A stretch of DNA of 64,000 nt from an uncultured Pseudomonadota bacterium (GCA_903844155.1 CAIMSU010000259.1:15808-79807); one strand, 5' to 3'. Shown: positions 6,619 through 37,348, numbered from the stretch's first letter. Notes: a model not told the origin generated them from the letters alone. Program-made: numbers and translations.

Positions 6619-6650
6619 CCCGTCTCAGAAACGCCCTACGCGATTCTGAG
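6619..6650 (+). repeat. REP-like palindromic repeat, copy 1
   Basis: cccgtctcagaaacgccctacgcgattctgag is identical over 32 nt to 37218..37249; stem ctcagaa/ttctgag plus cgc/gcg, loop cctac. Confidence 0.85.
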
Positions 6651-6805
6651 CCGCGGACATAAATTGTCCGGGGCGGTCTGGCTTTAGGCTATTGGATCCG
6701 GCGCTTTGGTTAAGCGCGGTGCCGCCGGGCCTCCGCCGGCTTTTCACTCCCTTGTCACCGTCGCGCGCCAACTGGGGTAAAATCAGGCGCTCCGCGGTGA
6801 TCTCC

Positions 6806-8956
6806 ATGCGCCCCGTTCGACCGTCCGCCCTTCGCCTCGTCGCCCCGGCCGTCGTCCTCCTCGCCCTGAGCGCGCCCGCCGTAGCAAAAACGCTCACGCC
6901 TGCGTCGACCACCGTCCCAGCGTCCTCCACGACCGTCCCCCTCTACGGCGGCGTCGAGGCGACCGACCCCTTCCTCTACGTCGAGGCGCAAGGCTCCGGC
7001 CTGCCCGTCCTCCTCCGCATCGACGCGTCCGGCGCCGCCGTACACCTCTCCAAGGCCGCCGCTGACCGCCTCGGGTTGACGCCGTCCAAGGCGACGACGC
7101 GCGCGAACGCCACGCTCCCGTCCCTGCAGATCGGCTCGGTGACCCTGTCCAATGTCGAGGTCTGGGTCGACGACAGCGTCGCCCCGGCAGGCACCCTCCC
7201 GGTGGACGGGTCGATCGGGCTGCTCGCGTTTCCGAACGTGTCGTGGGCAGTCACGCCGTCGACGGGGACGGTCACCGTTGCGCCGAACTCGGGCGGCGCT
7301 GCGCTTCTGGCGGCGATTCCCCTGCCCCCCGTAAGCGAGCCCGACGCGGGGCACCTCGCCACTGAGACCCTGCGGGTCGGGGGCAACCCGGTCACCCTCG
7401 GTCCCAAGCTCGGCTTTCCGATGGACGTCTCCGGGGTCCCACTCCGGCTGGACTGGGCGACGACGCGCTTGGAGACCAACGTGAGCGGCGAGGTCGACGG
7501 TACCTCCGAGGCGCTGACGCGCTCAAAACGGCCTTTGAAGCACGCAACACCCCTTCCTCCGGCGCCGACGAGCTGGAGCAGCGCCGTTCGCGTGGAGGCG
7601 CGCATGGTCAGCGGGGTGCCGACGAACGTCCATCGTGCGGGGGAGGGAGCGGACTGGTTGGTCGACGGGGCGGACGGCTATGCGGGCATCGACGTCGCCC
7701 AGCACTTCGACCTCGCGCTCGACAACGGCGCTCACAAGGCCGCGATCGCGCTCAGCACCGGCGTCACGAAAGCCGACTACGGCGACCTCCTCGAAGCCCG
7801 CCTGAACGCCGCGATCGCCGCCGCCGGCCCCGCCGCACCCACGTCCGGCCCGCCCTCCCCCGCTGAAAAGAAGCGCCTCACCGCGCTTGCCGCCTACGCC
7901 GACTTCCTGGAGGCGCGCGCCCGGTCGGCGGACGCCCTCGCCCTGCGCAAGGAGGTCGCCGAGGCCACGCCCGACGTCTGCGACGGGTGGTTGGCCTATG
8001 GGACGACCCTGCTGGCGGCCTCGCACCCGAAAGAAGCCGCGGACGCCCTTGCAAAGTCGCAGACCCTCTACGCGCCCTGGGCCGCCCGTACGCCCGCCGA
8101 ACGGACCGAGATCCAGAGCGACAAGGCGAGCGCCGAGAAGCACGGCACCTGGACCGGAATCGAGCCCCAACCCAACGCCTGCTACGTCGCCACCGGCCGA
8201 CTCGCGGCGGCAAAGCTGATTTTGCACGACTACGCCGGCATCTCGGACCTGTACGGGCAGCTCGACCTCGACGCCGGGCTCGCCCGGATCGCCGGCACTG
8301 CAGCGCTCGCCCAGGGCAACCGGGACGAGGCGCAAGCGCGCTTCCGGCAGGCGCAAAAGCTCCACGGCGTGGGCGAGGACGACGGCGCCCGCATCGGCCT
8401 CTACCTCGCCTACCGCGCGTCCAATCCGACCCTTGCAGCCGAGGAAGTGTCCGCGTCAAAATATCAGTTTGACGGGCACACCGACCCCCTTACCCTCGGC
8501 ATCTGGGCGGCGGACGTTCGGGCCCATGGCGACGCCGTCGCCCCCCTGCGCGCCCTCGCCGACGCCCATCCCACCGACCCCGTCCTCCTCGCCGCGCTCG
8601 TGGCGGAGGAGCGCCGCACCGGCACGACTGGGGCTGACGACGACGCGCTCGCCGCGCTGCGTGCCTTTGACCTCGCGCTGGAGGACGCTCCGCGCGACGG
8701 CCGACTTTGGGCGGACTACGCCCTCTTTCTCGTCGCCGAGCACAAGAACGACGAGGCGGGCAAGGCGGCGGACCTCGCCCTGATCTTCGCCCCCAACGCC
8801 GGCGAGACCTGGTACGCCGCGTCCACCGCCGTCGCCGCCGGGATCACGGTCCACGACGGTGGGGCAACGATCGCGCCCGAGCAGGTCGCTGCCACGCTCA
8901 AGCACGCGGGTGTCGTCGGCTACGACAACCCGGCCTACGCGTTGTTGGGCTTGTAA
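6806..8956 (+). CDS. Secreted protein: tandem aspartyl-protease-like domains (degenerate) plus TPR-like repeats
   Basis: Signal peptide from ATG 6806; LLRIDASGAA...DGSIGL and PLRLDWATT...DGYAGID resemble retropepsin lobes; Ala-rich helical repeats in the C-terminal half. Confidence 0.7.
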   Translation: MRPVRPSALRLVAPAVVLLALSAPAVAKTLTPASTTVPASSTTVPLYGGVEATDPFLYVEAQGSGLPVLLRIDASGAAVHLSKAAADRLGLTPSKATTRANATLPSLQIGSVTLSNVEVWVDDSVAPAGTLPVDGSIGLLAFPNVSWAVTPSTGTVTVAPNSGGAALLAAIPLPPVSEPDAGHLATETLRVGGNPVTLGPKLGFPMDVSGVPLRLDWATTRLETNVSGEVDGTSEALTRSKRPLKHATPLPPAPTSWSSAVRVEARMVSGVPTNVHRAGEGADWLVDGADGYAGIDVAQHFDLALDNGAHKAAIALSTGVTKADYGDLLEARLNAAIAAAGPAAPTSGPPSPAEKKRLTALAAYADFLEARARSADALALRKEVAEATPDVCDGWLAYGTTLLAASHPKEAADALAKSQTLYAPWAARTPAERTEIQSDKASAEKHGTWTGIEPQPNACYVATGRLAAAKLILHDYAGISDLYGQLDLDAGLARIAGTAALAQGNRDEAQARFRQAQKLHGVGEDDGARIGLYLAYRASNPTLAAEEVSASKYQFDGHTDPLTLGIWAADVRAHGDAVAPLRALADAHPTDPVLLAALVAEERRTGTTGADDDALAALRAFDLALEDAPRDGRLWADYALFLVAEHKNDEAGKAADLALIFAPNAGETWYAASTAVAAGITVHDGGATIAPEQVAATLKHAGVVGYDNPAYALLGL

Positions 8957-10170
8957 GCGCCAGTCTCGGGCAGCAACGCTGTCCCGACGCCGGCGGCCGC
9001 GAGACAGCCGACGAGCAGGATCACGGCACCCTCCCAGTTGCCCATCGCGCCGCTCATCCACACCATCACCATCATGACCACGACGCCGCCGCCGTTGCCG
9101 GCCATCATCAACAAGCCCGTCGCCGCTCCCGCGAGCGCCTGACCCGCGAGCGCGGTCCCGACGTCAAGCAGCAGCGCGAACGCCGGCAGGAAGAAGAAGC
9201 CTTGCAGGCCCGCTGTGACCATGATGACCGTGAAATTCGTGCTGTGGCACATCGGCCACAGCGTCCCGATGGCCGCGATGACGCTGAGGATGATGAACGG
9301 CTTGCGTCGCCCCGTCTTCTCGGCGAACAAGGGGATGATGCCCGCGCCGACGATGCCGCCGACGATCAGCACACCGCCGACGTAGCCAGCCTGCACCTCG
9401 GTGACGCCGTTGGGGCGAAGGATGAGGTCAATCCACGCGGTCAGGCCGTTGAAGTACCCGAGGCCGAGGAAGGTGATGCCGAACAGCAGCACGAGGGGGC
9501 GAGAAGTCAGCAGCGGGCGCAGGTTTTCGATGACGCCGGCTTCGGGCGGGAGCGGCACGGTGTTGTTCGGGTTGGTGCGGATGAGCGCGAGCGAGAGACC
9601 GGCGATGGCGGCGGAGATCACCGTCCAACCAACCATTGCGCCTTGCATCCCCCAAGCGTCGACCATCGGCGGCGTCGCCGCGAGGCCTGCGGCCATGCCA
9701 ATGAACATGCCGGCCGTGCCGAGGCCGGTCGCGCTCACCACCTCGTCGGCCGCGAACCAGTCGAGCACGAGCTTGGTGATGCCGTTGACGGCGAAGGGCT
9801 GGGCGATGGCCATGCCCGTTTGCGCAGCGACGAGCAGCCAGAAGCCGCCGGTCTCGGGCATGCAGACGATGCGAAGCGCGGCGGAGATCGCCATGATCAC
9901 GGCGGAGAGGCTGATCGCATAGGGGTAGCCTTTCTTGTCGGTGAGCACGCCGGCGGGGATCGAGAGGAAGACGTACAGGAGCGGGAACACCAGCATCAAC
10001 AGGCCAGCGGTCGCGTCGTCCACGTGGTAGTCGGCGGAGATCGTGGGCAAGAGCGGCGCGAAGTTGAGCCAGAGCGCCTGCGAGAGCCCGGCGACGAGCA
10101 TGAACACGCCAAGGACGAGCCAGCGGCGGGCGGATGGGGCGGCGGCGGGCGCGGGACTGGACAAGAGCAC
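8935..10170 (-). CDS. MFS transporter
   Basis: About 12 hydrophobic segments; MFS motif A-like GVLTDKKG and AEKTGRRKP. Confidence 0.9.
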   Translation of the reverse strand: MLLSSPAPAAAPSARRWLVLGVFMLVAGLSQALWLNFAPLLPTISADYHVDDATAGLLMLVFPLLYVFLSIPAGVLTDKKGYPYAISLSAVIMAISAALRIVCMPETGGFWLLVAAQTGMAIAQPFAVNGITKLVLDWFAADEVVSATGLGTAGMFIGMAAGLAATPPMVDAWGMQGAMVGWTVISAAIAGLSLALIRTNPNNTVPLPPEAGVIENLRPLLTSRPLVLLFGITFLGLGYFNGLTAWIDLILRPNGVTEVQAGYVGGVLIVGGIVGAGIIPLFAEKTGRRKPFIILSVIAAIGTLWPMCHSTNFTVIMVTAGLQGFFFLPAFALLLDVGTALAGQALAGAATGLLMMAGNGGGVVVMMVMVWMSGAMGNWEGAVILLVGCLAAAGVGTALLPETGAYKPNNA

Positions 10171-10252
10171 TCCGGGGAAACCGGCGGGTAACCGGGTGCA
10201 CCGCCCTCGCGGCCGCGCGCGGATGCGACCGCGCGATTTTCCCCGTCAACCC

Positions 10253-10323
10253 ATGATCCAGAACCGCCCTCTGCGGTTCTGGATCATCATGATCCAAAAG
10301 CGCCCTCTGCGGTTCCGGATCAT
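10253..10323 (+). repeat. Tandem pair of 35-nt hairpin repeats, same core as 6619/37218
   Basis: 10253..10287 is a perfect 15-bp stem (atgatccagaaccgc/gcggttctggatcat) with loop cctct; 10289..10323 is a variant copy; cgtc lies at 10244..10247. Confidence 0.85.
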
Positions 10324-10342
10324 CCGCCGGATAGGCAGCGGC

Positions 10343-11140
10343 ATGCGCCTCCTCGACCCAGACGGCTGGTCCGCGCCTCCTCGCCTTGCGGGGTGGGGAC
10401 CGAAAGAGCTGGCGTTATACGCCGATGCCATCGACCTCCCCTCCCGGTCGGCCCCGGTGACCTTCCTCGCCACGCTCGCCTTCCGCTGCGCCGGTCCGCT
10501 CCTCACCCGCATCGCCGGCGAGCGCACCCGCGCCATCATCGGCGGCAGCGCCGTCCACATCCTCTCCCCCCTCCCGGACGTCGGCACGCTCACGCTCGAG
10601 CGCACCGCCCGCGTCTACGCCCTCGGCGCGCTCGGCATCGCCGATCTCGAATTCCGCTTCCTGTCCGGCGACGGCCTCGTCGGCGCCGCCGCCCTCCAGA
10701 TCTGGTTCCCCGGCGAGGGCCGCCCGGGCTTCACCGCCCCGCCCCGAACGCCTCGCCCACTCACCCCACAGCGCCCGCCAGACTGGTCCGTCGACGTAGC
10801 GACTGCCCCCGATCAGGCCCGCCGCTACGCGCGCTGCGGCGACTCCAACCCGCTCCACAGCGATCCCGCCGTCGCGGCGCTCCACGAATTCACGGAAGGC
10901 CGCCCGATCCTCCACGGATTGTGCACGTTCGGGCTCGTCGGCCGCGCCATCGCGACCGCCCGCAACGCGCCGCTCGCCAGCCTCTCCGCCCGCTTCGCCC
11001 GCCCCGTCTGGCCCGGCGACACCCTGCGCATCTCCGGCTGGAACGACGCTGAGCACTGCCTCGTTCGCGCCCGGACCCTCGAGCGCCCCGACGACGATGT
11101 GTTGACAGCGGCACGCGCCACGCGTGCGCAACCCGGTTAG
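10343..11140 (+). CDS. MaoC/hydratase-2 family dehydratase
   Basis: YARCGDSNPLH hydratase-2 motif, PILHGLCTFG, RFARPVWPGD; ATG 10343. Confidence 0.85.
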   Translation: MRLLDPDGWSAPPRLAGWGPKELALYADAIDLPSRSAPVTFLATLAFRCAGPLLTRIAGERTRAIIGGSAVHILSPLPDVGTLTLERTARVYALGALGIADLEFRFLSGDGLVGAAALQIWFPGEGRPGFTAPPRTPRPLTPQRPPDWSVDVATAPDQARRYARCGDSNPLHSDPAVAALHEFTEGRPILHGLCTFGLVGRAIATARNAPLASLSARFARPVWPGDTLRISGWNDAEHCLVRARTLERPDDDVLTAARATRAQPG

Positions 11141-11162
11141 TTGATCTTCGGAGATCCACCAC

Positions 11163-12206
11163 ATGGCCGACGAAAAGCGCTACGAGATGCTCTGGGACTG
11201 CTCGCGGTGCGACACGCCAAAGCTCCTGGGCATGAGCCATCGGAACTGTCCGAATTGTGGCTCGCCACAGGACCAGACCAGGCGCTACTTCCCCAAGGAC
11301 GAGGACAAGGTGGCCGTCGAGGATCACCCGTTCGTCGGCGCCGACAAGGCATGCAAGGGGTGCGACGCCCCGAACGCCGCGAGCGCCCAATTCTGCGTGT
11401 GCTGTGGCGCTTCGCTGGAGGGAGCCGGGCCGGTGGTTGTGCGGGCAACGCAGTCGGACCAGACGGGCGGCTTTGGAGCAGACTCGGCGAAGGCGGCGAC
11501 GGACGAACAGCGCACGCAGAAGCTGGCGGATCGCGCGGCAAAGGACGCACCCGCGCCTGCCCCCAGTCGGGCGCTGCCGATGCTCGCGGGCGGCGGAATC
11601 CTCGCGATCATCGGGCTCGTCGTCGTGCTGGCCCTGGTGTTCGTGTTCTGGAAGAAGGACGCGGCGGTGACGGTGAGCAGCCACGCCTGGTCGCGGGAGA
11701 TCGCGGTTGAAGCCTTCAAACCCGTGAGCGACTCCGCGTGGAAGGAGTCGGTGCCCGCTGGCGCGCGCGACGTCGCGTGCGTGGCCGCACAACAGTCGAC
11801 GAACAAGGTGCCGGACGGCCAGGACTGCCACAAGGAGCGCAAGGACAACGGCGATGGCACGTTCACGGAGGCGCAGAAGTGCGAGCCGAAATTCAAGGAC
11901 GAGCCAGTGATGGGCCAGAAGTGCAGCTTCACCGTGGACCGTTGGGTTCAGGCCCGTACGGCCAGCGCCGCAGGGACATCGCTCACCCCCGCGCCGGCCT
12001 GGCCCGCGACCAACATCGCCGCCGGCGAGCGCGAGGGCGCCCGTACGGAGAAGTACACCGTGAACTTCACCGCCGGCACAAAGTCGCTTTCGTGCGACGT
12101 CGCCCAGGACAAGTGGGCGAACGTCCCGGACGGCTCAACGTGGAAGGCGCCTGTCGGGGTTCTGTCCGGATCGATCGACTGTACAGCGATGCAACCGGCG
12201 GGCTGA
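11163..12206 (+). CDS. Double zinc-ribbon single-pass membrane protein
   Basis: Four CxxC motifs (CSRC, CPNC, CKGC, CVCC), one TM helix and a Cys-containing extracytoplasmic domain. Confidence 0.8.
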   Translation: MADEKRYEMLWDCSRCDTPKLLGMSHRNCPNCGSPQDQTRRYFPKDEDKVAVEDHPFVGADKACKGCDAPNAASAQFCVCCGASLEGAGPVVVRATQSDQTGGFGADSAKAATDEQRTQKLADRAAKDAPAPAPSRALPMLAGGGILAIIGLVVVLALVFVFWKKDAAVTVSSHAWSREIAVEAFKPVSDSAWKESVPAGARDVACVAAQQSTNKVPDGQDCHKERKDNGDGTFTEAQKCEPKFKDEPVMGQKCSFTVDRWVQARTASAAGTSLTPAPAWPATNIAAGEREGARTEKYTVNFTAGTKSLSCDVAQDKWANVPDGSTWKAPVGVLSGSIDCTAMQPAG

Positions 12207-12214
12207 CCGGGCCC

Positions 12215-14044
12215 TTACGGCCACGCCGTCGCGAGGTTCTGGGCGTTGATCCCGCCCCAGCCCGTCGGATAATCCCAGCCGCTCTGGGCATAGTGGTTCG
12301 CGCCCGAGCCCCGCGTGACGTCCCGGAAGCTGGCCTGCACCGCGCTGTCCGTGTAGAGCACCGGATTGAGGAAGCCCATGAGCGGCTTCCCGTTGGCGAT
12401 GCGGTAGCTGTCTGCGTCCGCGATGGCGCCAGCAAACACGGGAGAGGAGAACGACGTGCCTTCGTACTCGTACCACGCGCCGATGTAGTAGACCCAGTAG
12501 GCATTCCCGGCTGAGGCCGAGACGTCGGTGACGGCGCGGGTCGTCCCGTCCGTCGTGATCCCGCTCTGCCAATCCGGCTTGTCGAAGCTCTTGGTATCGC
12601 CCTCGCCGCCGTACCAGGGGTACTCGTCATTCACGCGGGTGCCGGACATGTCGAGAACGGTGCCGCCAACGCAGGTGACGTAGGGGCTGGAGCACGGGAT
12701 GTCGGTCCCACCGGAGTCGCCGCTCGCCGCCGCCAGCGTGATCCCGAGCGACGCGCCCTCCATCGCAGCCTCGTCATACTGGTCGCGGACAAGCTTCGGC
12801 TCGCTGTCCTCGCGATGGGCGAAGGAGTCCGTGATGATGTCCACCTCGTCGAGCCCGATGGCCTCGTTGAAATCGTACACCATCGACGTGTTGCGGGAGT
12901 CCGGCCCCACGTAGACCTTCAGGTCCGCGCCCGGTGCGAGCCCGCCGGACCAGCTCACGTCCACCGTTGCCTCGACGTTGCGGGTTGGCGGGTCCTCCAT
13001 CGTGTACTGCACGGTCGGATCGTCGCGGGTGATGCCCGTAGACGTCCAGAATGACTCCAGATCAAGGTACTTGAACATGCCGCCGATGGTCACGCCGAGG
13101 CGGACCCCGGAGCCGTCATACCCGGCGTCCCAGAGCGACTTCACGCCATAGGCGTTTGCCAGGTCCGTTGGCTGGAAGGCACCGCCGCCAGGCGAACTGC
13201 TCTCCACGCTCCCCACCTCGTTCGGCAGCGGCCCGGGGTCCACGGGGTAGTCCGCGGTGATGATGCCGTTGGTGATGTCCGCCACAAAGCCGGGCAACGT
13301 GAAGGTGTCGACCGTGCAGTACACCATGACGGGCGGGTCCATCGACTCCGGGTTCACGCGGCTGCAGTCGTGCAGGGTGGTGTTGAAGGCGGTGTTGAAC
13401 TGCCCGACCGTGCCGCTGAACTGGATCAGGAGCCGGTTGGTGGCCTCGTAGTTGACCGAGAACCCTTCGTATTCCAGGTAGTCGTGGATCAGACTGAAAT
13501 CACTCGCGGTCGGCGCGTAGCTGTCGACCCAGGCGTTCGCGCTGGGGTAGTTCCGGTACTCCCCGCTGGTCGGGTCGCTCCAGGCCTTGAGGTTGTTCGC
13601 GAGGACGTCCGCGTTGCGCAGCGGGAAGCCGATCAGCGACCGGAATTCGGCGCTGCTGTCGGCCGCGCCTTCGTCCGTGTACACCCCCGAAAGCGGGCTT
13701 GGAAGGCCGTCCGAGTTGGAAACCGGGTTCCACTGGTCGGCCGGGATCTGGTCGAGGGACGTGTACCCGCTGCCCGAGTCGTGCGTGGAGCCGGAGTCAT
13801 CGCCGATCGGGCCCGACGTGTCATGCACCTGCGAGTCGTGGCCGTGCGAGTCGAGGTTCTTGCCGATGCTGGTGTCGCTGCCATCCTTGAGCCGCTTGTT
13901 CACGCATCCCGCCGACATTGCGAGGAGCAGGGGTACGCCGACAACGGCGAGGAGCCGGGCGGATTTCAGGCCGAAGCGCGCTGGGGTCAAGACAATCTCC
14001 ACGTCGCCCGTAGCGTAGCGCTGAACAGGCCCCGGCGTCCACAT
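12215..14044 (-). CDS. S53 (sedolisin/kumamolisin) serine peptidase lipoprotein, paralog 1
   Basis: EATVD (Glu/Asp), AASGDSG, GTSFSSP catalytic Ser, C-terminal Ca-site-like GWDYPTGWG; activation prodomain; start uncertain. Confidence 0.9.
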   Translation of the reverse strand: MWTPGPVQRYATGDVEIVLTPARFGLKSARLLAVVGVPLLLAMSAGCVNKRLKDGSDTSIGKNLDSHGHDSQVHDTSGPIGDDSGSTHDSGSGYTSLDQIPADQWNPVSNSDGLPSPLSGVYTDEGAADSSAEFRSLIGFPLRNADVLANNLKAWSDPTSGEYRNYPSANAWVDSYAPTASDFSLIHDYLEYEGFSVNYEATNRLLIQFSGTVGQFNTAFNTTLHDCSRVNPESMDPPVMVYCTVDTFTLPGFVADITNGIITADYPVDPGPLPNEVGSVESSSPGGGAFQPTDLANAYGVKSLWDAGYDGSGVRLGVTIGGMFKYLDLESFWTSTGITRDDPTVQYTMEDPPTRNVEATVDVSWSGGLAPGADLKVYVGPDSRNTSMVYDFNEAIGLDEVDIITDSFAHREDSEPKLVRDQYDEAAMEGASLGITLAAASGDSGGTDIPCSSPYVTCVGGTVLDMSGTRVNDEYPWYGGEGDTKSFDKPDWQSGITTDGTTRAVTDVSASAGNAYWVYYIGAWYEYEGTSFSSPVFAGAIADADSYRIANGKPLMGFLNPVLYTDSAVQASFRDVTRGSGANHYAQSGWDYPTGWGGINAQNLATAWP

Positions 14045-14062
14045 GTCCCCGATCCCCGTTCC

Positions 14063-21639: not shown

Positions 21640-21650
21640 ACCACCGGGCG

Positions 21651-26707: not shown

Positions 26708-26753
26708 GCGAGCGGGTATCCCCGCCCACGTTGGGCGGGGGTATGCTGTCATC

Positions 26754-28422: not shown

Positions 28423-29615
28423 CGACGCGCCGGCCCCGTGCCGCCCTCGTCGACGTCCAGCGTCCCGTACAGATGCAGGGCGTCATCGAGGCCTCGCGCG
28501 TCTGTGGCGACCGCGCGCAGCCGGACACCCGCGACGTTCTGTTGGGTCTGCGCGGGCAAGCTCTGGTCCATTGCGGTCACGATCGCGTCGAGGATCCGGG
28601 ATTCAAACAACGCCGCGAGGGGATCGACGAGCAGCGCGCCGGGACTGCTCGCCGTCTCCTTCGCCGTTTTTGCCTCAAACGTCAGCTTCGAGCGGCCGTC
28701 CGCCTTCACGCCAATGTCACCGACAACCTCGTAGTCCCGGTACCAACCCCGCCCCACGAGCCGCCAGAGCCGCAGCTCCAGCGTGAACGCGGACCCGTCG
28801 ACCACCAGGCCCCGGGGATCGGCGGCAACGTCCATCGCCAGCGTCCCCGCCTGGTAAGCAGCGCGACGGGCGATGCCGCTGATCACCGACTCCGACATCG
28901 CCACTTCCACGCCGCTCGTGGGGGAGGGCAAGGCGCGCAGCGGGCTCGCGCCCGGCACATCGCTCAGGATCTCGATCGCGAGCCGATCCGGCGTCGCCGA
29001 TAGGCGCATGTCCCGGACTGGGAGCGCCCCTTTGTCGAGCGTCGCGACGCGGATCGGCGGCAACTTGTTCGCGATCGTCTGCCGCAGCCACTCCTGGACG
29101 GGCCCGGAGGCGTTCACGCGCAGGTTCCCAAGCGACGGCACGTCCACCGTCAGGCTCTCGATCCGGTTCGGCCGAACGTCGACCTCGTTCCCGTTGTGGA
29201 TCGACGCCGCGAGGATGGCGCTGGCTGCCGCCGAGATCGGCACGCTCCCGCTCGCCGGCCCCGCTTCCCAGCGCGCCTGCCCCTCCAGCGCGATCTGCAC
29301 CGAAAAGCAGGCGGCGCAATCCGTGGTCAGCGCGATCTTGACGCTCTTGACCTCCAATTGCGGCGTGAGCGTGGCCTGGATCCCGAGCGGCAATGGAAGC
29401 TGGATCGCTGGATGATCGGCCGAAAGCGCGGTGCGGATCACCTTGCGCAGCGCCAACGCAAGCTCGGGGGCGGCGATGGCGACCGCGGCGTCGGGCTTCC
29501 AGTTTGGCGGGACGCCCGTGGCCACCGCCAACGCGGAGACGCGCTCGGTCGCGTACAGCTTCGTGACGTCGGGCGTGCAGCCGAGCAGCAGGATCGGCAG
29601 GAGGAGGCCAGACAC
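28419..29615 (-). CDS. Hypothetical lipoprotein
   Basis: Lipobox LLLGC; stop overlaps the SGNH GTG start; long beta-strands in two halves. Confidence 0.75.
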   Translation of the reverse strand: MSGLLLPILLLGCTPDVTKLYATERVSALAVATGVPPNWKPDAAVAIAAPELALALRKVIRTALSADHPAIQLPLPLGIQATLTPQLEVKSVKIALTTDCAACFSVQIALEGQARWEAGPASGSVPISAAASAILAASIHNGNEVDVRPNRIESLTVDVPSLGNLRVNASGPVQEWLRQTIANKLPPIRVATLDKGALPVRDMRLSATPDRLAIEILSDVPGASPLRALPSPTSGVEVAMSESVISGIARRAAYQAGTLAMDVAADPRGLVVDGSAFTLELRLWRLVGRGWYRDYEVVGDIGVKADGRSKLTFEAKTAKETASSPGALLVDPLAALFESRILDAIVTAMDQSLPAQTQQNVAGVRLRAVATDARGLDDALHLYGTLDVDEGGTGPARR

Positions 29616-29669
29616 GGGCGGTGACTAATCCGGATTCGGGGGGGATGCTCCCCCGGGTTACGCTACAGG

Positions 29670-30881
29670 GTGCCCGAGACCGAAGACCCCGTAGCTGCGC
29701 TGCTGGCCCCGCAACTGCCGGTGCGCGCGGCCGCGGCCCGGGACCTTGCCGTCATGGGCTCGCCGGAGCACCTCGACCTGCTCGTCGCCCGGGCGACCGA
29801 CGACCCCTCACCCGGCGTGCGTCTCGGATGTGCCGCAGCGGCCGCGGACATCCTCTCGCGCCACCGCCTCGGCCCCGCCGCCGACGCCGTCCCGGCAGCA
29901 CACCGCGCCGCCCTCCTCCTCGCCGTCGCCAGGGCCGACCCCTCGCACAACGTCGGACTCTTCCAGGTCTGCGGCACCCTGGGCACGGAGGCCGCGATCA
30001 ACCGCATCCTCATCGGCCTGCGGGACCCTCGCTCGGATGTACGCGCAGGCGCGATCGTTGGGGTGATGCGCCTCGCGGAGAGCGCCGGTGCCCCGGAGAA
30101 CCTGGAATCCCGCCTTGTACCCCTGCTGAAGGGCGACCGGGTCCGCCCGGAGACGCAGGCCGAGCTCGCAGGCGTGTACGCGAACCTTGGCTACTGGAGT
30201 GCGCTGGATGGCGCCCGTCGCCTCGCCGAGAGCGCCGCCAAGCGGGTCGCGCTGGTAGCGACGGAGGCGGTCGCCCGCCTCGCGCGCCCGCCTGGGCCCG
30301 ACGGGCTCTGGGTCGACCTGGACGTAGACGCCGGGGAGGTGCGCCCAGACGCCCGCCCGGTCGCGCTGGTGGCGACGGTCGGGGATCGCGTCTACACCGT
30401 GTCGTTGGCGGAGCCCGGGGGCGTAGGGGTGACAACGCGGCCAGACCGGGTCCGACATCTGGTGCTGCGTCGCCCCGGCTCAAAGGAGCCGGCCACGGAG
30501 GTCCTCCAGCTCGCCACCCGCACATTGTGGGCGCAGGACGCCGATGAACAGGTGGAGTTCGGCGACGCGCTCGTTCGCGCCGGGGCGTGGTCGACAATCC
30601 GCGCGGTCGACCCGGTCCTCCCGGCAACCGCGTCCACTTTCCGTTTGCGAGGCGCTGCGGCGTTCACGGCGGGCGCGAACGACGAGGCCCTGGTGGCGCT
30701 AAAGGCCGCCACCGACATGAAAAAATGCCCGGTGGACGCCTGGTACTACTACGGATCGGCCCTGGCGCGTGGGGGCCAGTCAGACGCCGCCCGGGAGTCG
30801 CTGGAGCGGTACGTCGCGCGGGCGCCCAAGAAGGGGTCGTTGCTGCCGCAGGCACGCGCAGCCCTGGGCAGCCTCGGGTAG
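29670..30881 (+). CDS. HEAT-repeat/TPR protein
   Basis: DPSPGVRLGCA and DPRSDVRAGA HEAT-like repeats; C-terminal DAWYYYGSALARGG TPR-like motif. Confidence 0.75.
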   Translation: MPETEDPVAALLAPQLPVRAAAARDLAVMGSPEHLDLLVARATDDPSPGVRLGCAAAAADILSRHRLGPAADAVPAAHRAALLLAVARADPSHNVGLFQVCGTLGTEAAINRILIGLRDPRSDVRAGAIVGVMRLAESAGAPENLESRLVPLLKGDRVRPETQAELAGVYANLGYWSALDGARRLAESAAKRVALVATEAVARLARPPGPDGLWVDLDVDAGEVRPDARPVALVATVGDRVYTVSLAEPGGVGVTTRPDRVRHLVLRRPGSKEPATEVLQLATRTLWAQDADEQVEFGDALVRAGAWSTIRAVDPVLPATASTFRLRGAAAFTAGANDEALVALKAATDMKKCPVDAWYYYGSALARGGQSDAARESLERYVARAPKKGSLLPQARAALGSLG

Positions 30882-30884
30882 GGC

Positions 30885-31229
30885 CTACAGGGGTTCTACC
30901 GGCGCTACGTCGTCCTCGTCGTCGTCCTCATCGTCGTCCGGGTCCCAGTCATCGTCATCGTCGCCGTCGTCCGAGGCGTCGTCGTCGTCGTCTTCGTCGA
31001 ACTCCTCCTCGGCCTCGTCGTCGAGATCGTCAAGGTCGTCGTCCATGTCCTCATCACCGATGTCCGCGGACTCGTCCGTGTCCTCGTCGTCGACGTCGTC
31101 GTCCTCCAGGGCGTCGTCGTCAAAATCATCGTCGTCAAAAGCGTCGTCTCCCGGAGCGGGCGGGTCCGGAGGCGCCGCGTGGACGGGCCATTTCGGGGCG
31201 AGGAGGGCGACAGGGGCGGGGGTCGGCAT
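30885..31229 (-). CDS. Small, extremely acidic (Asp/Glu-rich) protein
   Basis: GGAG RBS-like site upstream of TTG-ATG; Pro/Ala head followed by an ~80-residue D/E tract; regular GAC/GAG codon usage. Confidence 0.6.
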   Translation of the reverse strand: MPTPAPVALLAPKWPVHAAPPDPPAPGDDAFDDDDFDDDALEDDDVDDEDTDESADIGDEDMDDDLDDLDDEAEEEFDEDDDDDASDDGDDDDDWDPDDDEDDDEDDVAPVEPL

Positions 31230-31248
31230 CAAGCTGCTCCGGACGGAT

Positions 31249-31956
31249 TCATATCCCGGCGTGCTCGTCGAGGAAGCGCAGCGCGCGTGCCCAGGCGAGC
31301 TCGGCCGCGTCGCGCTGGTAGCCGGGCCGGTTCGGGTTCATGAACGCGTGCGGGCAGGCCGGATAACGGAAGACCTGGGCCGGAAAAGACCGTCCGGCGA
31401 GCCGCTGCTCAAGGAGGTCGACGTGGCCGGGCGGGGCAACGGGGTCTTCGGCGCCGTAGTGGCACTGGAGCGGGCAGCCGAGGCCGGCGATGAGATCGAG
31501 AGGTTGCACCGGCTTGTTCGGGCTGGTCCCAGCGTAGACGATCCGGCCGTAGAACTCGACTGCGCCCGCGAGCCCCGGGAGCGTGCAGGCGGCCATGCGC
31601 GCGTAGAGCCCGCCGATGCAAAACCCCATGATGAACCTGGGTAGATCTGGAGGGAGCTGGGCGAGCGCGGCCCGGACGTCCGCGAGCGCCTCGGAGTCCA
31701 CGGTGGCCTCAACCGCGGCCATCACGCCGCTCGGGCCCGCAAGATCCAGCTTTCGTCCTTCGCTTCCCCCTCCTCGAGCCGTCCGCCACCACAGGTCGGG
31801 CATAACGACGTCAAAGCCCTCGTCCGCCAGTCGCCGCGCCCACCCGCGCAGCGCGTCGTCGACACCCCAGATCTCTGGCACGAGCACCACGCCCCCGCGC
31901 GTCGAAACATCCGACGTGCTCGTGATCTTCTCCATCGTGCCCGGTCCTGACGGCAT
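31249..31956 (-). CDS. Dienelactone hydrolase family protein
   Basis: EIWG, GFCIGG Cys nucleophile, GAEDP Asp, HAF His. Confidence 0.92.
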   Translation of the reverse strand: MPSGPGTMEKITSTSDVSTRGGVVLVPEIWGVDDALRGWARRLADEGFDVVMPDLWWRTARGGGSEGRKLDLAGPSGVMAAVEATVDSEALADVRAALAQLPPDLPRFIMGFCIGGLYARMAACTLPGLAGAVEFYGRIVYAGTSPNKPVQPLDLIAGLGCPLQCHYGAEDPVAPPGHVDLLEQRLAGRSFPAQVFRYPACPHAFMNPNRPGYQRDAAELAWARALRFLDEHAGI

Positions 31957-31958
31957 GA

Positions 31959-34900
31959 ATGTGGAGTATCCTGTCGCCGATGCGCTCGGTGCTGCGCCAC
32001 CACGAGCCTCCGCAACCGGCCCGGCGATGGCAGGGCCGTCTCCCCATCCTCCTCCTGTTCGCCTCCACCGGCGTCGCCCGCGGCGCCACGGGCGGTCCTT
32101 CCGCCGCAAACCTCGTCTACACCGACTCCGCGGAGCCCGGCGGCCCGACCCACGAGTGGCTCGACGCGACTGGAGGCGATTCCATCGTCCTCGGCGACGA
32201 CGACAGCGCCCCGGTCACCCTCCCCTTCGCCTTCTCCTTCGCCGGTAGTTCCTACTCCAGCGCGACCGTCTCCTCCAACGGCGTCCTCTACTTTGCCGGC
32301 ACCGACACGGACGGCACCACCACCGACCCGAACGGCGCCTGCCCCACAGCCGCGGGCTGGACCGGCATCGCCGTGTTCCAGGACGACCTGGCCGCCAGCA
32401 CCGTGCACACCCGCACGTTCGGCCGCTACCCAGATAGAACCTTTGTTGTTTCATGGGACACCCTGCAGCCTGTCGGAAGCCCGTCCGCCGGTCGCGCGCA
32501 GCTCTGGCTGCTGGAGGGCCGCAACGAGGCCGTCATCGTGCTGGACGACCTCACGTTCGGGGATGCCGGCCACAATGGCGGCGCCAGCGCGTTCATCGGG
32601 GCGGCAGCGGCGGGCGACGGGCTCGCGTACACGTGCGCGGGGGGCGTGCCCGACGGCACCAGCGTCTGGATGGGCGACGAGACCTCGCGGCCGGGGCGGA
32701 TCAACATCCGCACGGACGAGCTGGGCGCGCCGTGGGGGGGCGACATCGACTTTGCCTACGCGGGAACCTCGGTCGCCGCGGGCGACGTGAACGGGGATGG
32801 CGTGGATGATGCGCTGGTTGGCGCGAAGGATCGCGGCTACGGGCAGGCGTATTTGATGCAACGACCGTGGACCGCGGGGACGTTTGACGGGGCCGACGCC
32901 GTCTTCTCCGGCAAGGCCTCGGGCGACGCGTTCGGCACCACGGTGCTGCTCGACGACGTCGATGGCGACGGGCTGGCTGACGCGATCATCGGGGCGCCGT
33001 CCAACGACGATGCGGGCACGAACAAGGGCAAGGTCTACGCCTGGCTCGGCGGCGCGCTCAACGGCAGCTATGCAGCTTCTACCGCTGATTTCACGGCGAA
33101 CGGCGATGCGTCCGACCGCCCGGTCGCCGGCACGTCGCTCTGCGCGAACGCGGACGTGGATGGCGATGGCTACGCGGACCTGCTCGTCGGCGCCCCGGAC
33201 TCGGACCTCGGCGCGACAAATGCTGGTTCCACCTACGTCTACTTCGGACCGCTGGCCGCGGGGAGCCCGACCGCCGGTGCGACGCTCTACTCGGCGACCG
33301 CGTCCGACCGGTTCGGAACGAAGGTTGCGGCCGGGGATCTCGATGGCGACGGCAAGGCCGAGCTGATCGTGTCCTCGCCGCAGAACGACGGCACGGCGTC
33401 GGACGCGGGGGTGGTGTACGTGTACTCGGGCGGGAGTTGGTCAGGTTCCAACGAGGCGACGGCGTCGGCCGACTGCACGTGGAAGGACACCACCGCGTCC
33501 GATCGCTTCGGCTCCTCGCTCCTGGCCGCGGACATCGACGGTTCCGGCGCCCTCGACCTGATCGCGGGCGCTCCGTACGGCAATGGTGCGGCCTCCGACG
33601 CCGGCTATGTCTGGGTGCTCTACGACCCCGGGCTGGGCGGCTGCGAGACGACGACCGCGTCGGCCGATGCTGCCGTCAACGGCATCGCGGCCTCGGCGAA
33701 CCTCGGGATGCAGCTCGCCGCCGGGGACATCGATGGCGACGGCGTCGACGACCTGGTGATCAGCGCCACGAACGGCAAGACCGACGCGGCGGGCGGGGGC
33801 ATCGTCTACGTGTTCACCACGCCGCCCTGGGGGGCGGTCTCGGCTGACGATGCCGACCACGTCGTGCTCGGCGAGTCGACCGGCGGCGCGTTCGGAACCG
33901 GCATCGCGGTCGCGAAGGACGACGACCCGTGGCCAACGCTGCTCGGGACAGCGCCCTACGCCAACGGCTCGCACACGGCGGAGGGCGCGCTCTATTCCTG
34001 GGCGTACACCCCGGACTTTCTGGACGACGACGCCGACGGGTTCGTGGACGTTGGCGCAGGCGGCAACGACTGCAACGACAGTCAGGCCAGCGCCTACCCC
34101 GGAGGGCGCGACGTTTCGGACGGCGGCACCGGATCCGACAACGTGGATGGGGATTGTGACGGTTGGACCGATGGTGTCATCATCGCCCGCGCGGACGAGG
34201 ATGGTTTTGACTACGATCTGGCCGACCTCGGGTACTCCGGCGGTGGTGCGCCGCACACGTTCGATTTCGAGAGCTATGCGGCCGCGGATCTGCTTGGCGA
34301 CTACGTCGGCGACAAGGCGACGCTGTCCTTCTCGCGCGCCGTGTATGCGAGCGACGACGTTTTCGGCACCTTCCCCGACGGTAATATTGGCGCTTCGTTC
34401 GCCCCGGATGTGTACACCGGCATCACGATGAGCTCGACGAGCCCCATCGAGGCGATGTCGTTCTCGCTCCTCGACCCCAACGACACGTTCACGCTCACCG
34501 CGACCGGCTCCGACGGCACCATCACCTTCAATTTCGCCGACAGCGCCAATGACCGCACGGGCGGCAGCTACCACGGCTTCTCCTTCGCTTTTCCCGTCGA
34601 CTCGGTCACGCTCACGCCAGCCGGGGGCGACGGTTTTGGCCTTGACGACATCGCGATCCTCTACGCGACCGAGACCGACCACGACGGCGACGGCTACACC
34701 GAGGACAGCGGCGACTGCGACGACAACCGCGCGGACGTCAACCCGAGCCAGCCCGAGCTGATGGGCGACGGCATCGACAACGACTGCGACGGTGTGATCG
34801 ACGGCGGCGAGGCGGTCGCGTACACCGACGAGGCCACGTGGTTCGCGGCATCCGGCATCGCGGTCGAGCAGAAGATCGACTTTGAACGCCTGTCAGCCAC

Positions 34901-37190
34901 CGATTCGCTGACCACCCAGTACGTCGACCTTGGCGCGCAGTGGGACGCCGGGGCCCTTGGAGCGCGCGACATCGACGGCACCCCTCCCATCGACACCATC
35001 GCCGCCTCGGACGACGGCGGCACGCTCGTCACGTACTTTGAGGTCCAGCAGCCGGCGGTCGGGTTCTACCTGCTGAACGGGAGTGGCACATTCACCGTGG
35101 AGGCCTATCTACACGGTGTATTGTCCTACACAACGGCCATCACCCCCTCGACCGACGACCAATTCGTCGGCATCGACTACGACTACGAGGTGGACGAGAT
35201 CCACATCGTCCCGCCGACTGCAGGGGACGGAACCCCTGACCTCTATGGCATCGACAACCTCGTCTACTCGGCGCTGAGCCTGGACGACAAGGATGGCGAC
35301 GGACAGACCGCGGCAGAGGGCGACTGCAACGACAGCGACCCCACGGTGTACACCGGTGCGACAGACACGCCCTACGACGGCGTCGACTCCAACTGTTCGT
35401 CGTGGGACACCAATACAAGCAACGACAATGACTACGATGCCGATGGCGACGGGTATGCGTCGAGTGCGTACGGCGGGACGGACTGCAATGACAGCAACGC
35501 CGCCGTGAACCCGGACGCGACCGAGACCTACTACGACCGCGTCGACCAGAATTGTGACGGTCAGAACGACTACGACTCCGACGGCGACGGGTATGTCTCA
35601 CAGGCCTGGGGCGGCACGGACTGCAACGACAGTAGCTCGGCTGTCAGCCCGGACGCGACCGAGACCTACTACGACGGCGTCGATCAGAATTGCGATGGTC
35701 AGAACGACTACGACTCCGATGGCGACGGCTACGTCAGCGCCGCCTACGGTGGCACCGACTGCAACGACGGGTCCGCGACGACCAACCCGGACGCGACCGA
35801 GATCCCCTACGACGGCATCGACGAGAACTGCTCCGGCGGCAGTGTCATCGACGACTACGACGCGGACGGCGACGGCTATGTCTCGGCAGCCTATGGAGGA
35901 ACGGACTGCCGCGATGACGTCGCCAGCGCCTACCCGCATGCCCCCGGGGAGATCTGCTACGACGGCATCGACACCGATTGCGACGGGGCCAGCGACTATG
36001 ACTGCGATGGCGACGGCTACGACTCGATCGACTACGGGGGGACCGACTGCGACGACTCCGACGACACGATAAATCCAGGCGCAACCGACATCATGGGTGA
36101 CGGCATCGACTCCAACTGCGACGACGCGCCCGACTACGACTTTGACGGCGATGGCTTTGATGACATGGCCGACGGCGGCACCGACTGCGATGACACCAAC
36201 CCAGACATCTACCCGGGTGCGGTGGATGACTGTTACGACGGCATCGACGCGGATTGCGCGGGCGACGACGATTTTGACTGCGACAAGGACGGCGACGACT
36301 CGGATCTGTACGGCGGCGGCGACTGTGCCGATGACAACCCCGAGATCTCGTCGTTGATGGAAGATTTTCCCTACGACGGCGTCGACATGAACTGCGACGG
36401 TCTGGATGACTACGACGCCGATGGCGACGGCCACGACTCGATCTGGTACGGCGGCGATGACTGTAACGATGACGACGCGACCATCCACCCCGGTGCTGTG
36501 GACGCCTGCTACGACGGCATCGACAGCGACTGCGACAGCACTTTCAGCGACGACGACTGCGATCACGACGGCTACGCGATCCTGACGGCCTCCGACGCGC
36601 CTGACGACCCGACGAAGGACTGCGACGACACCGACGCGACCGTCCACCCCGGCGCGACCGAGATCGCCGGCGACGGCATCGACCAGGACTGCTCTGGCGC
36701 CGACCTGTGCTCCGACTGCGATGGCGATGGGCACGTGGACGTTGCCTACGGCGGCGACGATCCCGATGACACCGACCCGAACGTGTACCCCGGTGCGCCC
36801 GGCTCGGACTCGGGGGTCGACAGCGGCGAAACGGACAGTGCCCGAAGCGACACCGCAGCCGCGGGCGACACCGCCCGCTCGGACACTGCCCGCTCCGACA
36901 CTGCGCGCGACTCGGGGGGCGGCGATGCGGACACGGACACCGATTCAGACACAGACACTGACGCAGACGCGGACACCGACACGGACTCCGACACCGCCAC
37001 AGACACAGACACCAGCGCCAACGCCGACTCTGGCGACTGGCTGCCGGACTCCGGGTACGACACCGGGCCCTACCTGACGAACGTCACCGTCACGCCGACG
37101 GGGACGTGCGGTTGTGCTAGCGGCGGGGATTCGGCTGGGTTCGCGGGGCTGCTCCTCGCGCTGGCGATCACCAGAAAACACCGGTCGTAA
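31959..37190 (+). CDS. Large surface protein: NIDO-like domain, 7 FG-GAP repeats, ~13 MopE-like metal-binding repeats, MYXO-CTERM-like anchor
   Basis: LGDDD..V.LPF.F.F...Y....VSSNG N-domain; seven FG-GAP-type blades; repeated DxDGDG..DC.D..P.A.E..YDG.D.NC; C-terminal CGCASGG + hydrophobic helix + RKHRS. Start may be 31980. Confidence 0.9.
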   Translation: MWSILSPMRSVLRHHEPPQPARRWQGRLPILLLFASTGVARGATGGPSAANLVYTDSAEPGGPTHEWLDATGGDSIVLGDDDSAPVTLPFAFSFAGSSYSSATVSSNGVLYFAGTDTDGTTTDPNGACPTAAGWTGIAVFQDDLAASTVHTRTFGRYPDRTFVVSWDTLQPVGSPSAGRAQLWLLEGRNEAVIVLDDLTFGDAGHNGGASAFIGAAAAGDGLAYTCAGGVPDGTSVWMGDETSRPGRINIRTDELGAPWGGDIDFAYAGTSVAAGDVNGDGVDDALVGAKDRGYGQAYLMQRPWTAGTFDGADAVFSGKASGDAFGTTVLLDDVDGDGLADAIIGAPSNDDAGTNKGKVYAWLGGALNGSYAASTADFTANGDASDRPVAGTSLCANADVDGDGYADLLVGAPDSDLGATNAGSTYVYFGPLAAGSPTAGATLYSATASDRFGTKVAAGDLDGDGKAELIVSSPQNDGTASDAGVVYVYSGGSWSGSNEATASADCTWKDTTASDRFGSSLLAADIDGSGALDLIAGAPYGNGAASDAGYVWVLYDPGLGGCETTTASADAAVNGIAASANLGMQLAAGDIDGDGVDDLVISATNGKTDAAGGGIVYVFTTPPWGAVSADDADHVVLGESTGGAFGTGIAVAKDDDPWPTLLGTAPYANGSHTAEGALYSWAYTPDFLDDDADGFVDVGAGGNDCNDSQASAYPGGRDVSDGGTGSDNVDGDCDGWTDGVIIARADEDGFDYDLADLGYSGGGAPHTFDFESYAAADLLGDYVGDKATLSFSRAVYASDDVFGTFPDGNIGASFAPDVYTGITMSSTSPIEAMSFSLLDPNDTFTLTATGSDGTITFNFADSANDRTGGSYHGFSFAFPVDSVTLTPAGGDGFGLDDIAILYATETDHDGDGYTEDSGDCDDNRADVNPSQPELMGDGIDNDCDGVIDGGEAVAYTDEATWFAASGIAVEQKIDFERLSATDSLTTQYVDLGAQWDAGALGARDIDGTPPIDTIAASDDGGTLVTYFEVQQPAVGFYLLNGSGTFTVEAYLHGVLSYTTAITPSTDDQFVGIDYDYEVDEIHIVPPTAGDGTPDLYGIDNLVYSALSLDDKDGDGQTAAEGDCNDSDPTVYTGATDTPYDGVDSNCSSWDTNTSNDNDYDADGDGYASSAYGGTDCNDSNAAVNPDATETYYDRVDQNCDGQNDYDSDGDGYVSQAWGGTDCNDSSSAVSPDATETYYDGVDQNCDGQNDYDSDGDGYVSAAYGGTDCNDGSATTNPDATEIPYDGIDENCSGGSVIDDYDADGDGYVSAAYGGTDCRDDVASAYPHAPGEICYDGIDTDCDGASDYDCDGDGYDSIDYGGTDCDDSDDTINPGATDIMGDGIDSNCDDAPDYDFDGDGFDDMADGGTDCDDTNPDIYPGAVDDCYDGIDADCAGDDDFDCDKDGDDSDLYGGGDCADDNPEISSLMEDFPYDGVDMNCDGLDDYDADGDGHDSIWYGGDDCNDDDATIHPGAVDACYDGIDSDCDSTFSDDDCDHDGYAILTASDAPDDPTKDCDDTDATVHPGATEIAGDGIDQDCSGADLCSDCDGDGHVDVAYGGDDPDDTDPNVYPGAPGSDSGVDSGETDSARSDTAAAGDTARSDTARSDTARDSGGGDADTDTDSDTDTDADADTDTDSDTATDTDTSANADSGDWLPDSGYDTGPYLTNVTVTPTGTCGCASGGDSAGFAGLLLALAITRKHRS
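35281..36800 (+). repeat. Intragenic tandem repeats, ~138-nt (46-aa) period
   Basis: ccggacgcgaccgag recurs at 35511, 35649 and 35787 (138-nt spacing); about 10 contiguous units plus one partial. Confidence 0.9.
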
Positions 37191-37217
37191 GCCAACTCCT
37201 GCCGCACCTACAAGCCC

Positions 37218-37249
37218 CCCGTCTCAGAAACGCCCTACGCGATTCTGAG
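37218..37249 (+). repeat. REP-like palindromic repeat, copy 2 (may also act as a terminator between convergent genes)
   Basis: Identical to 6619..6650; the stem here extends to ccccc-cgtctcagaa / ttctgagacg-aggggg. Confidence 0.85.
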
Positions 37250-37348
37250 ACGAGGGGGAAAATGGGGAGCGAGAAGCGAAGAAAGAGCAGGATGTTTGAG
37301 GCAAAGGCAAACCGACTCAACAGTCGCTTTGTTGTGCCCGCTGCCGCG

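Follow-up and report, generated by a model that had tools for sequence, protein, structure and literature searches.

What kind of element are four similar hairpins that occupy three intergenic regions of a 64,000-nucleotide stretch of DNA (hereafter the window; positions 15808-79807 of contig CAIMSU010000259.1, here C259) from an uncultured bacterium? Terminators, operators, structured RNA and mobile DNA could all be considered, and the analysis presented here indicated that the hairpins are probably non-autonomous mobile DNA of the repetitive extragenic palindrome (REP) type, belonging to a system of REPs and a REP-associated tyrosine transposase (RAYT), also called a REPtron or TIRtron, in an uncultured genus of Myxococcota. 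The source genome (G000) is an assembly of 8.13 Mb in 375 contigs, with 68.7% GC, and the best named relative of its Tgt protein was 'MAG: Myxococcota bacterium' (74% identity). Comparisons were made with 40 relatives, among which G001 to G004 are congeners of G000 (G001 being its sister species) and G005 is a further relative.

The hairpin family in the window and in the genome

The hairpins of the window belong to two types, A and B, and are listed here by window position, together with a gene that is related to the proposed enzyme of the system:

6619..6650, + strand: type A hairpin (putative REP), copy 1; one of the 15 exact 29-mers of the genome; covariance-model match at C259:22429
6651..6676, + strand: 'box 2', second hairpin of the type A unit, ccgCGGACA-taaat-TGTCCGgggcgg; from the alignment of 25 copies, the predicted fold being two adjacent hairpins
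10253..10287, + strand: type B hairpin, copy 1, ATGATCCAGAACCGC-CCTCT-GCGGTTCTGGATCAT, with a perfect 15-bp stem; covariance-model match at C259:26062, E = 8e-9
10289..10323, + strand: type B hairpin, copy 2, in direct tandem; covariance-model match at C259:26098
37215..37258, + strand: type A hairpin (putative REP), copy 2; fold of -19.7 kcal/mol, z = -7.7
2305..3120, - strand: Y1-HTH (RAYT-like; HTH, helix-turn-helix) paralogue gene; genome match at C259:18112-18915, E = 6e-33

An initial annotation, made from the window alone, had reported an identical 32-mer, cccgtctcagaaacgccctacgcgattctgag, at 6619-6650 and 37218-37249, and two 35-nt hairpins in tandem with one base between them, at 10253-10287 (atgatccagaaccgccctctgcggttctggatcat) and 10289-10323 (atgatccaaaagcgccctctgcggttccggatcat). 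The sequences were as it stated, and the common core that it had assigned to the four was found on the plus strand in all of them; as a strict regular expression this core matched nowhere else on C259. Single-strand folding of the hairpins (29-35 nt) was stronger than that of shuffled sequence, with z-scores of -4 to -9. In type A copy 1, the tag CC(C)GTC is followed by the stem CTCAGAA, an A/A mismatch and CGC; after the loop CCTAC come GCG and TTCTGAG. Type A copy 2 lacks box 2, and its flanks CCCCCCGTCTCAGAA...TTCTGAGACGAGGGGG lengthen the stem to 19 pairs. In the tandem pair, the stem of type B copy 2 is more degenerate than that of copy 1.

The genome-wide search that the initial annotation had proposed revealed a family. 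The type A 29-mer GTCTCAGAAACGCCCTACGCGATTCTGAG occurred 15 times exactly and nine times with one mismatch in the 8.13-Mb genome, 24 copies in all, and the reversed control sequence not once; these counts, together with the folding z-scores, indicate that the family is not a product of chance. One extra copy with four mismatches brought type A to 25 copies. The type A unit spans approximately 60 nt. It opens with a C-rich stretch that finishes on CGTC in 22 of 25 copies; next comes the 29-nt hairpin, in which the CGC-CCTAC-GCG tip is invariant and a single internal mismatch is conserved; the last part is box 2 (23 of 25 copies), a hairpin that the initial annotation had not described.

The consensus of box 2 is CC-CTGGWCA-N5-TGTCCGGGG, with the core GGACA-N5-TGTCC. 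Strict matches to GGWCA-N5-TGTCCGG number 18 in the genome and 15 of them lie directly 3' of a type A hairpin, which places box 2 within the element and rules it out as a pre-existing target site. A longer unit, running about 50 nt past box 2 and containing the transposase 5' leader and a ribosome-binding site (a 'GGAGGTTAGAGGCGG...GACGTG' motif), was rejected, since right-flank alignments scored like controls (mean pairwise local alignment 9.4, against 8.7 +/- 3.0 for control upstream regions); the end of the unit was accordingly placed about 60 nt after its first base. A sigma-54 promoter reading of box 2 was also discarded: judged by eye, the minor variant TGGACATTTTTTGGCA fits the TGGCAC-N5-TTGC spacing, but the main variant TGGTCAGAAAATGTCC lacks the -12 GC. 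In three type A copies (C107:33675-33750, C341:106650-106730 and C300:14700-14790) an inverted box 2 (TGCCAAAAAATGTCC) is present on the 5' side as well, giving a box2-REP-box2 arrangement, and four solo GGACATTTTTTGGCC sites were found in AT-richer intergenic DNA of C55, C117, C286 and C318. At C252:16068-16330, upstream of fmt, a 130-bp direct tandem duplication contains a type A unit and flanking non-repeat sequence in each copy; this pair is a local duplication, not two insertions.

Type B, with approximately 27 copies, is more heterogeneous: its core is CGC-CCTCT-GCG, its outer arms read GCTCGGA.. or GATCCAGA..., and it includes the tandem pair at 10253-10323. Both types share the CGC-CCTNN-GCG core with covarying outer stems. 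As judged from the sequences, type B is probably an older, more diverged subfamily and type A a recent burst; type B is closer than type A to the repeat of the sister species (GGATCCGCCCTC.GCGGATCC). The CGTC that the initial annotation had placed at every locus is literally present at 6621, 10244 and 37220; genome-wide, however, it proved to be a trait of type A only, preceding 22 of 25 type A but 5 of 27 type B copies, and the repeats of the sister species carry no such tag. In type A the final C of the tag can pair with a 3' G. Because so few type B copies have it, the CGTC at 10244, which lies 5 nt before the stem, is probably coincidental.

A covariance model with 13 paired positions and a 5-nt loop was seeded with type A, type B and the sister-species repeat, and it found 51 copies in G000, located on about 40 contigs. 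The claim that the outer stems differ and still pair was borne out by this analysis: seven of the 13 pairs of the seed alignment vary on both sides yet stay paired, position 10/22 is the conserved mismatch and the three tip pairs are invariant. None of 500 shuffles reached the observed covariation score, a statistic that leans towards structure, as the seed sequences were partly picked for hairpin potential. In a control with slid partners, 88.7% of cells were paired in the true register and 24-47% when the partners were slid. Among 32 distinct genomic copies, positions 1-4, 6 and 9 showed two to three Watson-Crick pair types. Stem sequence thus varies while pairing is kept, which points to a folded single strand, rather than duplex sequence, as the object that is recognised.

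A Y1-HTH gene between inverted hairpins, and its distribution

The link between the hairpins and an enzyme is found outside the window. On contig C182, two type A units in inverted orientation, at C182:8180(+) and C182:9175(-), bracket an intact open reading frame (ORF) of 274 amino acids (C182:8247-9068, minus strand), the ends of which lie 10 nt and 47 nt from the units; box 2 faces the gene on both sides, and the gene is single-copy. This bracketing, together with the co-occurrence described below, makes the C182 protein a candidate cognate enzyme of the type A hairpins. The motif GGGGWSAS was found in none of the 25 type A units. A single GGGGTGAC that fits it is located in the 5' leader of the gene (C182:9090-9100, minus strand), about 21 nt before the ATG and with no inverted partner, and it may be a chance match.

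The C182 protein was assigned through its paralogues, an alignment profile and the predicted fold. A word-index protein search with it returned only the query, and a related-locus search with it found nothing. Four paralogues with 33-38% identity are encoded in G000, one of which passes the Pfam Y1_Tnp cut-off. In an alignment of four intact proteins, H56 and H58 of the HUH motif and Y116 (in YIPANP or YIHANP, the class-2 Y---NP form) are invariant; the C182 protein itself has H56-L-H58 and Y116 in YIPANP, and an S/T-S motif follows the tyrosine in the family. The profile of the paralogue alignment matched the TnpA structures of ISDra2, IS200 and Sulfolobus across the HUH strand. The AlphaFold model (pLDDT 83) had as its best match in the PDB 4ER8, the structure of Escherichia coli TnpAREP in complex with a REP hairpin; about 28 chains of IS200, IS608 and ISDra2 came next, and the C-terminal helical domain of the model resembled the DNA-binding domain of DnaA (3PVP, TM score 0.73). 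A full HMMER scan of 1.84 billion representatives yielded 11,820 relatives at E <= 1e-3 and eight at E <= 1e-30, and sampled relatives carried Pfam Y1_Tnp together with Bac_DnaA_C or HTH_23, with NCBIfam REP_Tyr_transpos at 1e-13 to 1e-20. The protein is therefore predicted, from models and profiles, to consist of an N-terminal HUH/Y1 single-strand DNA endonuclease domain and a C-terminal DnaA-like HTH.

The paralogue encoded in the window (2305-3120) is 33% identical to the C182 protein and keeps the NHAH and YIH motifs. It has no flanking inverted hairpins and is not the cognate gene of the window hairpins; it is located directly downstream of a radical-SAM/B12-binding gene. In metagenomic data its orthologue P0002 (locus L131) sits between inverted CGCTGCATTTCATATCA repeats of its own. 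Each of the three other paralogues of G000 is flanked by an amplified hairpin family that belongs to it; match counts for these families cover both strands, so that palindromic families score on both. The paralogue at C113:28359-29099 has GGATCTGAGCWGCTCAGATCC palindrome doublets on both sides (C113:28181-29240) with TATTGACNCGTCAA-like spacers and 34 matches in the genome, and of those at C268:23807-24700 and C113:46393-47250, one is flanked by CGACGTCGTCGCTTTTG...CAAAAGCGACGTCGTCG (34 matches) and the other by a CTACCACAAGTGCTCTCCGCAGTTGTGGTAG-like family (24 matches). In the copy at C113:46393, the protein-like part of the frame is closed by two TGA stops in succession.

The distribution of the repeat follows that of the gene. 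The type A 29-mer was present in none of the 40 relatives, and no copy was found in other genomes among 185,579 species representatives or in metagenome contigs of the Joint Genome Institute (JGI). The inner module GGATCCGCCCTCYGCGGATCC was matched among those representatives only in 'Myxococcales bacterium Baikal-deep-G128' and, by chance, in one Streptomyces. The covariance model, which found 51 copies in G000, found 40 in G001, none in G002-G004 and 0-2 weak matches in each of the 36 other relatives. An orthologue of the C182 gene exists in G001 only (42% identity, E = 1e-56); G002 and G003 have no homologue, and G004 has one of 31% identity. Hairpin superfamily and orthologue thus share the same two genomes, and the initial annotation's proposal of a lineage-specific REP family gains a gene bracketed by inverted copies that lay beyond its view.

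The gene of the sister species repeats the arrangement. It is flanked by GGGTAGGATCCGCCCTCCGCGGTTCCTACCC, which is single at one end of the gene and forms an inverted doublet (5-nt spacer) at the other. This repeat has the same tip as type A and different outer arms that are still complementary; it occurs in 37 copies in G001, many of them inverted doublets, and in none of the other four congeners. It contains GTAG, but paired inside the stem. The homologue in G004 is flanked by a different hairpin, TGTCCGAATTTG-RAGGGGGY-AAATTCGGACA, of which 19 copies occur in G004 only.

By analogy with TnpAREP of Escherichia coli and with TnpA of IS608 and ISDra2, a sequence of steps can be proposed. The hairpin would extrude in single-stranded DNA, the Y1 domain would recognise its shape and tip, and the enzyme would cut beside the foot of the hairpin, so that copies could be excised or copied to new intergenic sites with no target duplication. 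Binding and cleavage of the hairpins by the C182 protein are suggested by the same analogy, and any role of the HTH or of box 2 is inferred. Mobility of the copies is suggested by their near-identity, their species specificity and the link to the enzyme.

Location of the copies and competing explanations

The gene contexts of the three window loci, taken from ORF lists, Pfam and a metagenomic gene call, agreed with the initial description of two divergent regions and one convergent region. At locus 1, the enolase gene (start 6580, minus strand) diverges from a gene for a 716-aa protein (start about 6806), and type A copy 1 sits 39 nt upstream of the enolase start codon. Locus 2 separates genes for a major facilitator superfamily (MFS) transporter (start 10170, minus strand) and a MaoC-like dehydratase (start 10343), and type B copy 2 ends 19 nt before the start codon of the latter. 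Locus 3 is convergent, between a gene for a 1743-aa FG-GAP/MopE-repeat protein (stop 37190) and one for a short-chain dehydrogenase (SDR; stop 37349, minus strand). The 1743-aa protein (31959-37190, plus strand) has 10 MopE-type putative metal-binding repeats and six FG-GAP repeats, and its repeat-coding DNA matches more than 70 places per related genome.

Genome-wide contexts, which rest on rough gene calls of our own, showed that none of the 52 copies (25 type A and 27 type B) is inside a gene, in line with the intergenic enrichment that the initial annotation had named as a check. Of the type A copies, 14 lie in divergent, eight in unidirectional and three in convergent regions. Since only 24% of all intergenic regions (22% of intergenic length) are divergent, type A is enriched in divergent promoter regions (14/25 against 24%, binomial p ~7e-4). 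Convergent regions hold three of the 25 type A and three of the 27 type B copies. Published REPs are mostly found between unidirectional or convergent ORFs, downstream of genes (PMC3733652), and the promoter-region bias of type A is the opposite of that distribution. The genes downstream of copies include those for a response regulator, an SDR, an amidohydrolase and several large secreted proteins, as well as tgt, ribF, queG, fmt and ksgA. Paralogy of these genes was considered as the cause of the repeats; an all-against-all BLASTP of the downstream proteins gave no related pairs, and a leader linked to paralogous genes is thereby excluded.

That only six of 52 copies lie between convergent genes bears on the possibility that the hairpins are no more than intrinsic terminators of the ordinary kind, or GC-rich palindromes that arose by chance. 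The convergent setting of locus 3 and the very stable hairpin there would suit a terminator. No T-run follows the hairpins, however, a terminator scan called none of the copies, and 24 near-exact 29-mers stand against none for the reversed control, so that this explanation is barely credible. The initial annotation had held that copies confined to convergent gene ends would mark ordinary terminators, and such confinement was not what was found. At locus 3 a small bidirectional terminator-like hairpin, CGACTCAACAGTCG, with T-rich tails on both strands, separates the type A copy from the SDR stop (37313-37326), and this hairpin may serve as the actual terminator of the convergent pair of genes.

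The repeats might alternatively act mainly as RNA, as an element of 5' or 3' untranslated regions or as a small RNA that stabilises or attenuates transcripts, with the link to a transposase being incidental. The two-hairpin fold is strong and conserved, and many copies lie between the promoter region and the start codon and are thus probably transcribed as leaders; effects of REPs elsewhere on mRNA stability and translation are known (background in PMC3733652; works cited in PMC6006769). Rfam 15, on the other hand, gave no match at gathering score in the whole window, with only noise at E >= 1 (up to 10) around locus 1. The hairpins are not followed by a U-run, and they are spread over all three gene contexts, facing either way with respect to their neighbours. 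A function in RNA alone would also leave the species-specific amplification and the inverted pair around the Y1 gene unexplained, and we regard it as highly improbable.

The enrichment in divergent promoter regions favours a third alternative, in which the hairpins are duplex cis-regulatory sites (operators or promoter modules), the Y1-HTH protein is domesticated and binds the palindromes, especially box 2, through its HTH, and the sites are kept by selection on expression. This explanation is further favoured by copies within tens of nucleotides of the start codons of housekeeping genes (ksgA, queG, fmt, tgt, ribF and eno), by the C-terminal HTH, which is missing in classical RAYTs, and by box 2, an inverted repeat of the type bound by HTH dimers that adjoins the C182 gene on both sides. 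Several results speak against it. The genes downstream of copies have no functional relation to one another, convergent gene pairs enclose some of the copies, and at loci 1 and 3, where the flanking genes have 78-84% DNA identity in G001-G005, the repeat is absent from all five relatives, four of them congeners. Near-perfect identity over 29 nt with freely diverged flanks is typical of recent amplification rather than of operators, the stems change between subfamilies and species with pairing kept, and the HUH and tyrosine residues of the protein are retained. A purely regulatory reading is accordingly considered unlikely; the initial annotation, too, had noted that a plain terminator or operator would not account for all three loci. 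The mobile-element and regulatory readings are nevertheless compatible, and copies can have been co-opted after their spread.

The reading as REP-type mobile DNA has to be weighed against several observations that do not favour it. The copy numbers (25 and 27) are low for a classical REP family, and no GTAG or GTGG tetranucleotide guide stands 0-2 nt before the stem, type A having CGTC and type B no consistent tag. The C182 protein taken alone had no Pfam match, and its best NCBIfam match, REP_Tyr_transpos, fell below threshold (E = 0.012). None of the type B copies lies beside a paralogue, the CGCCCTNNGCG core flanking only the C182 gene among them. The preference of type A for divergent promoters belongs here as well. 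A strand bias relative to GC skew or to the gene-strand majority gave no signal in this assembly, which is fragmented and has a small skew. Empty sites in relatives had been put forward as a check in the initial annotation: the hairpin is missing from the orthologous regions of the five relatives, but the flanks are too diverged to define empty sites, and at loci 1 and 3 no empty site or insertion boundary was readable in G001-G005, where the intergenic DNA is unalignable. Neither a transposition event nor presence/absence polymorphism was seen; the locus 1 copy was present on both of two further metagenomic contigs from the same population.

Relation to known systems and significance

REP/RAYT systems and TIRtrons are established, and the case described here is a further example of the REP/RAYT type. 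The surveys used for comparison were those of TIRtrons and TIRYT genes (Di Nocera et al. 2013, PMC3733652) and of TnpAREP subclass 2.1 (Quentin et al. 2018, PMC6006769), a subclass that corresponds to RAYT group 1 of Bertels et al. 2017 and is largely Di Nocera's TIRYT. Judged by its motifs and domain order, the C182-type protein appears to be of the HTH-bearing TIRYT/subclass 2.1 kind rather than a canonical GTAG-REP RAYT. The likeness to this group includes the Y1 HUH core with Y---NP, the S/T-S after the tyrosine and a C-terminal HTH related to Bac_DnaA_C or HTH_23. It extends to the presence of several diverged paralogues per genome and to the bracketing of the gene by inverted, partly self-complementary ('double palindromic') repeats of about 60 nt that form moderately abundant families. 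Subclass 2.1 is reported to be prevalent in delta-proteobacteria, and no REP-like sequences were found beside its genes by Quentin et al. (PMC6006769); here, in contrast, true REP-like hairpins with 13 paired positions (10-12 of which actually pair) and a 5-nt loop flank the genes. The closest precedent is the observation of Di Nocera et al. (2013, PMC3733652) that certain TIRYT repeats are self-complementary and 'double palindromic' and occur in moderate numbers. The present case differs from TIRYT in that four of the five paralogues have an amplified family of their own, and from many terminal inverted repeats (TIRs) in that GGGGWSAS is absent from the 25 dispersed type A copies.

The canonical REP/RAYT systems of Escherichia, Pseudomonas and Stenotrophomonas (structure 4ER8) likewise consist of short imperfect palindromes dispersed in intergenic DNA, with one cognate Y1 gene between inverted copies and a family that is specific to enzyme and species. 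The likeness extends to a predicted fold nearest to TnpAREP and to inverted doublets, spaced by 5 nt, which are found both in type B and in the sister species. Unlike canonical REPs, type A has no 5' GTAG or GTGG, numbers tens rather than hundreds of copies, occurs mostly as singletons with a second hairpin attached and prefers divergent promoters instead of positions downstream of genes; the enzyme also has the extra HTH domain.

The initial annotation had named GTAG- and CGTC-tagged palindromes as known REP superfamilies. Type A mostly carries the CGTC tag, has no GTAG tag, and matches none of the four published CGTC families (CGTC-1 to CGTC-4, PMC3733652), a superfamily characterised by an unpaired CGTC (or TGTC/CCTC) at one end. 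Type A shares with these families the position of CGTC directly 5' of the stem (22/25), the 5-nt loop (published, 4-5 nt) and a short C-rich 3' tail. It differs in having a stem of 10-11 positions with an A/A mismatch (published, 8-9 bp), T-A and C-G as first pairs (published, two A-T) and the tail GCC(C) instead of CCA; type A copies are also mostly single, whereas the published repeats form head-to-head dimers, and type B and the sister repeats are untagged. Because it fails on stem length, first A-T pairs and CCA tail, type A was not filed under the CGTC families. For the published CGTC REPs no associated transposase was found (Di Nocera et al. 2013, PMC3733652), whereas type A has a candidate.

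Insertion sequences of the IS200/IS605 family and their non-autonomous derivatives, palindrome-associated transposable elements (PATEs), resemble the present system in having an HUH/Y1 enzyme, hairpin-defined elements without terminal inverted repeats of the DDE type, and no target-site duplications at the copies. The flanked gene here is single-copy, however, its two ends are inverted copies of one unit rather than distinct left and right ends, no tnpB is present, and the tyrosine motif is of class 2 (Y---NP) rather than class 1 (Y---Q).

A bolder version of the REP/RAYT reading can be put forward, although it is more doubtful than probable. HTH-bearing RAYTs (subclass 2.1/group 1) would be active mobilisers of true REP hairpins in this Myxococcota lineage, with one family per paralogue; the bipartite type A unit would be directed to divergent promoter regions or kept there, box 2 would be bound by the HTH, and promoter activity of housekeeping genes would be supplied or modulated. 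Type A would in that case be the first REP with a CGTC tag to have a transposase of its own.

A literature search found no description of a REP/RAYT-type system in Myxococcota, and the finding extends such systems to an uncultured freshwater genus of this phylum. Within this one genus, Y1 enzymes and hairpins have diverged together, with the same tip, different stems and 19-51 copies, and with none in species without the enzyme. The system bears on two questions raised by the surveys, namely whether the HTH-bearing RAYTs have REP-like partners (Quentin 2018) and whether a transposase serves the CGTC palindromes (Di Nocera 2013). For annotation, it means that 60-nt units fill much of short divergent promoter regions, such as those of eno, ksgA, queG and fmt, and should not be taken for operators or terminators. 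This preference for promoter regions is atypical of REPs, and effects of the units on the expression of the adjoining genes are conceivable.

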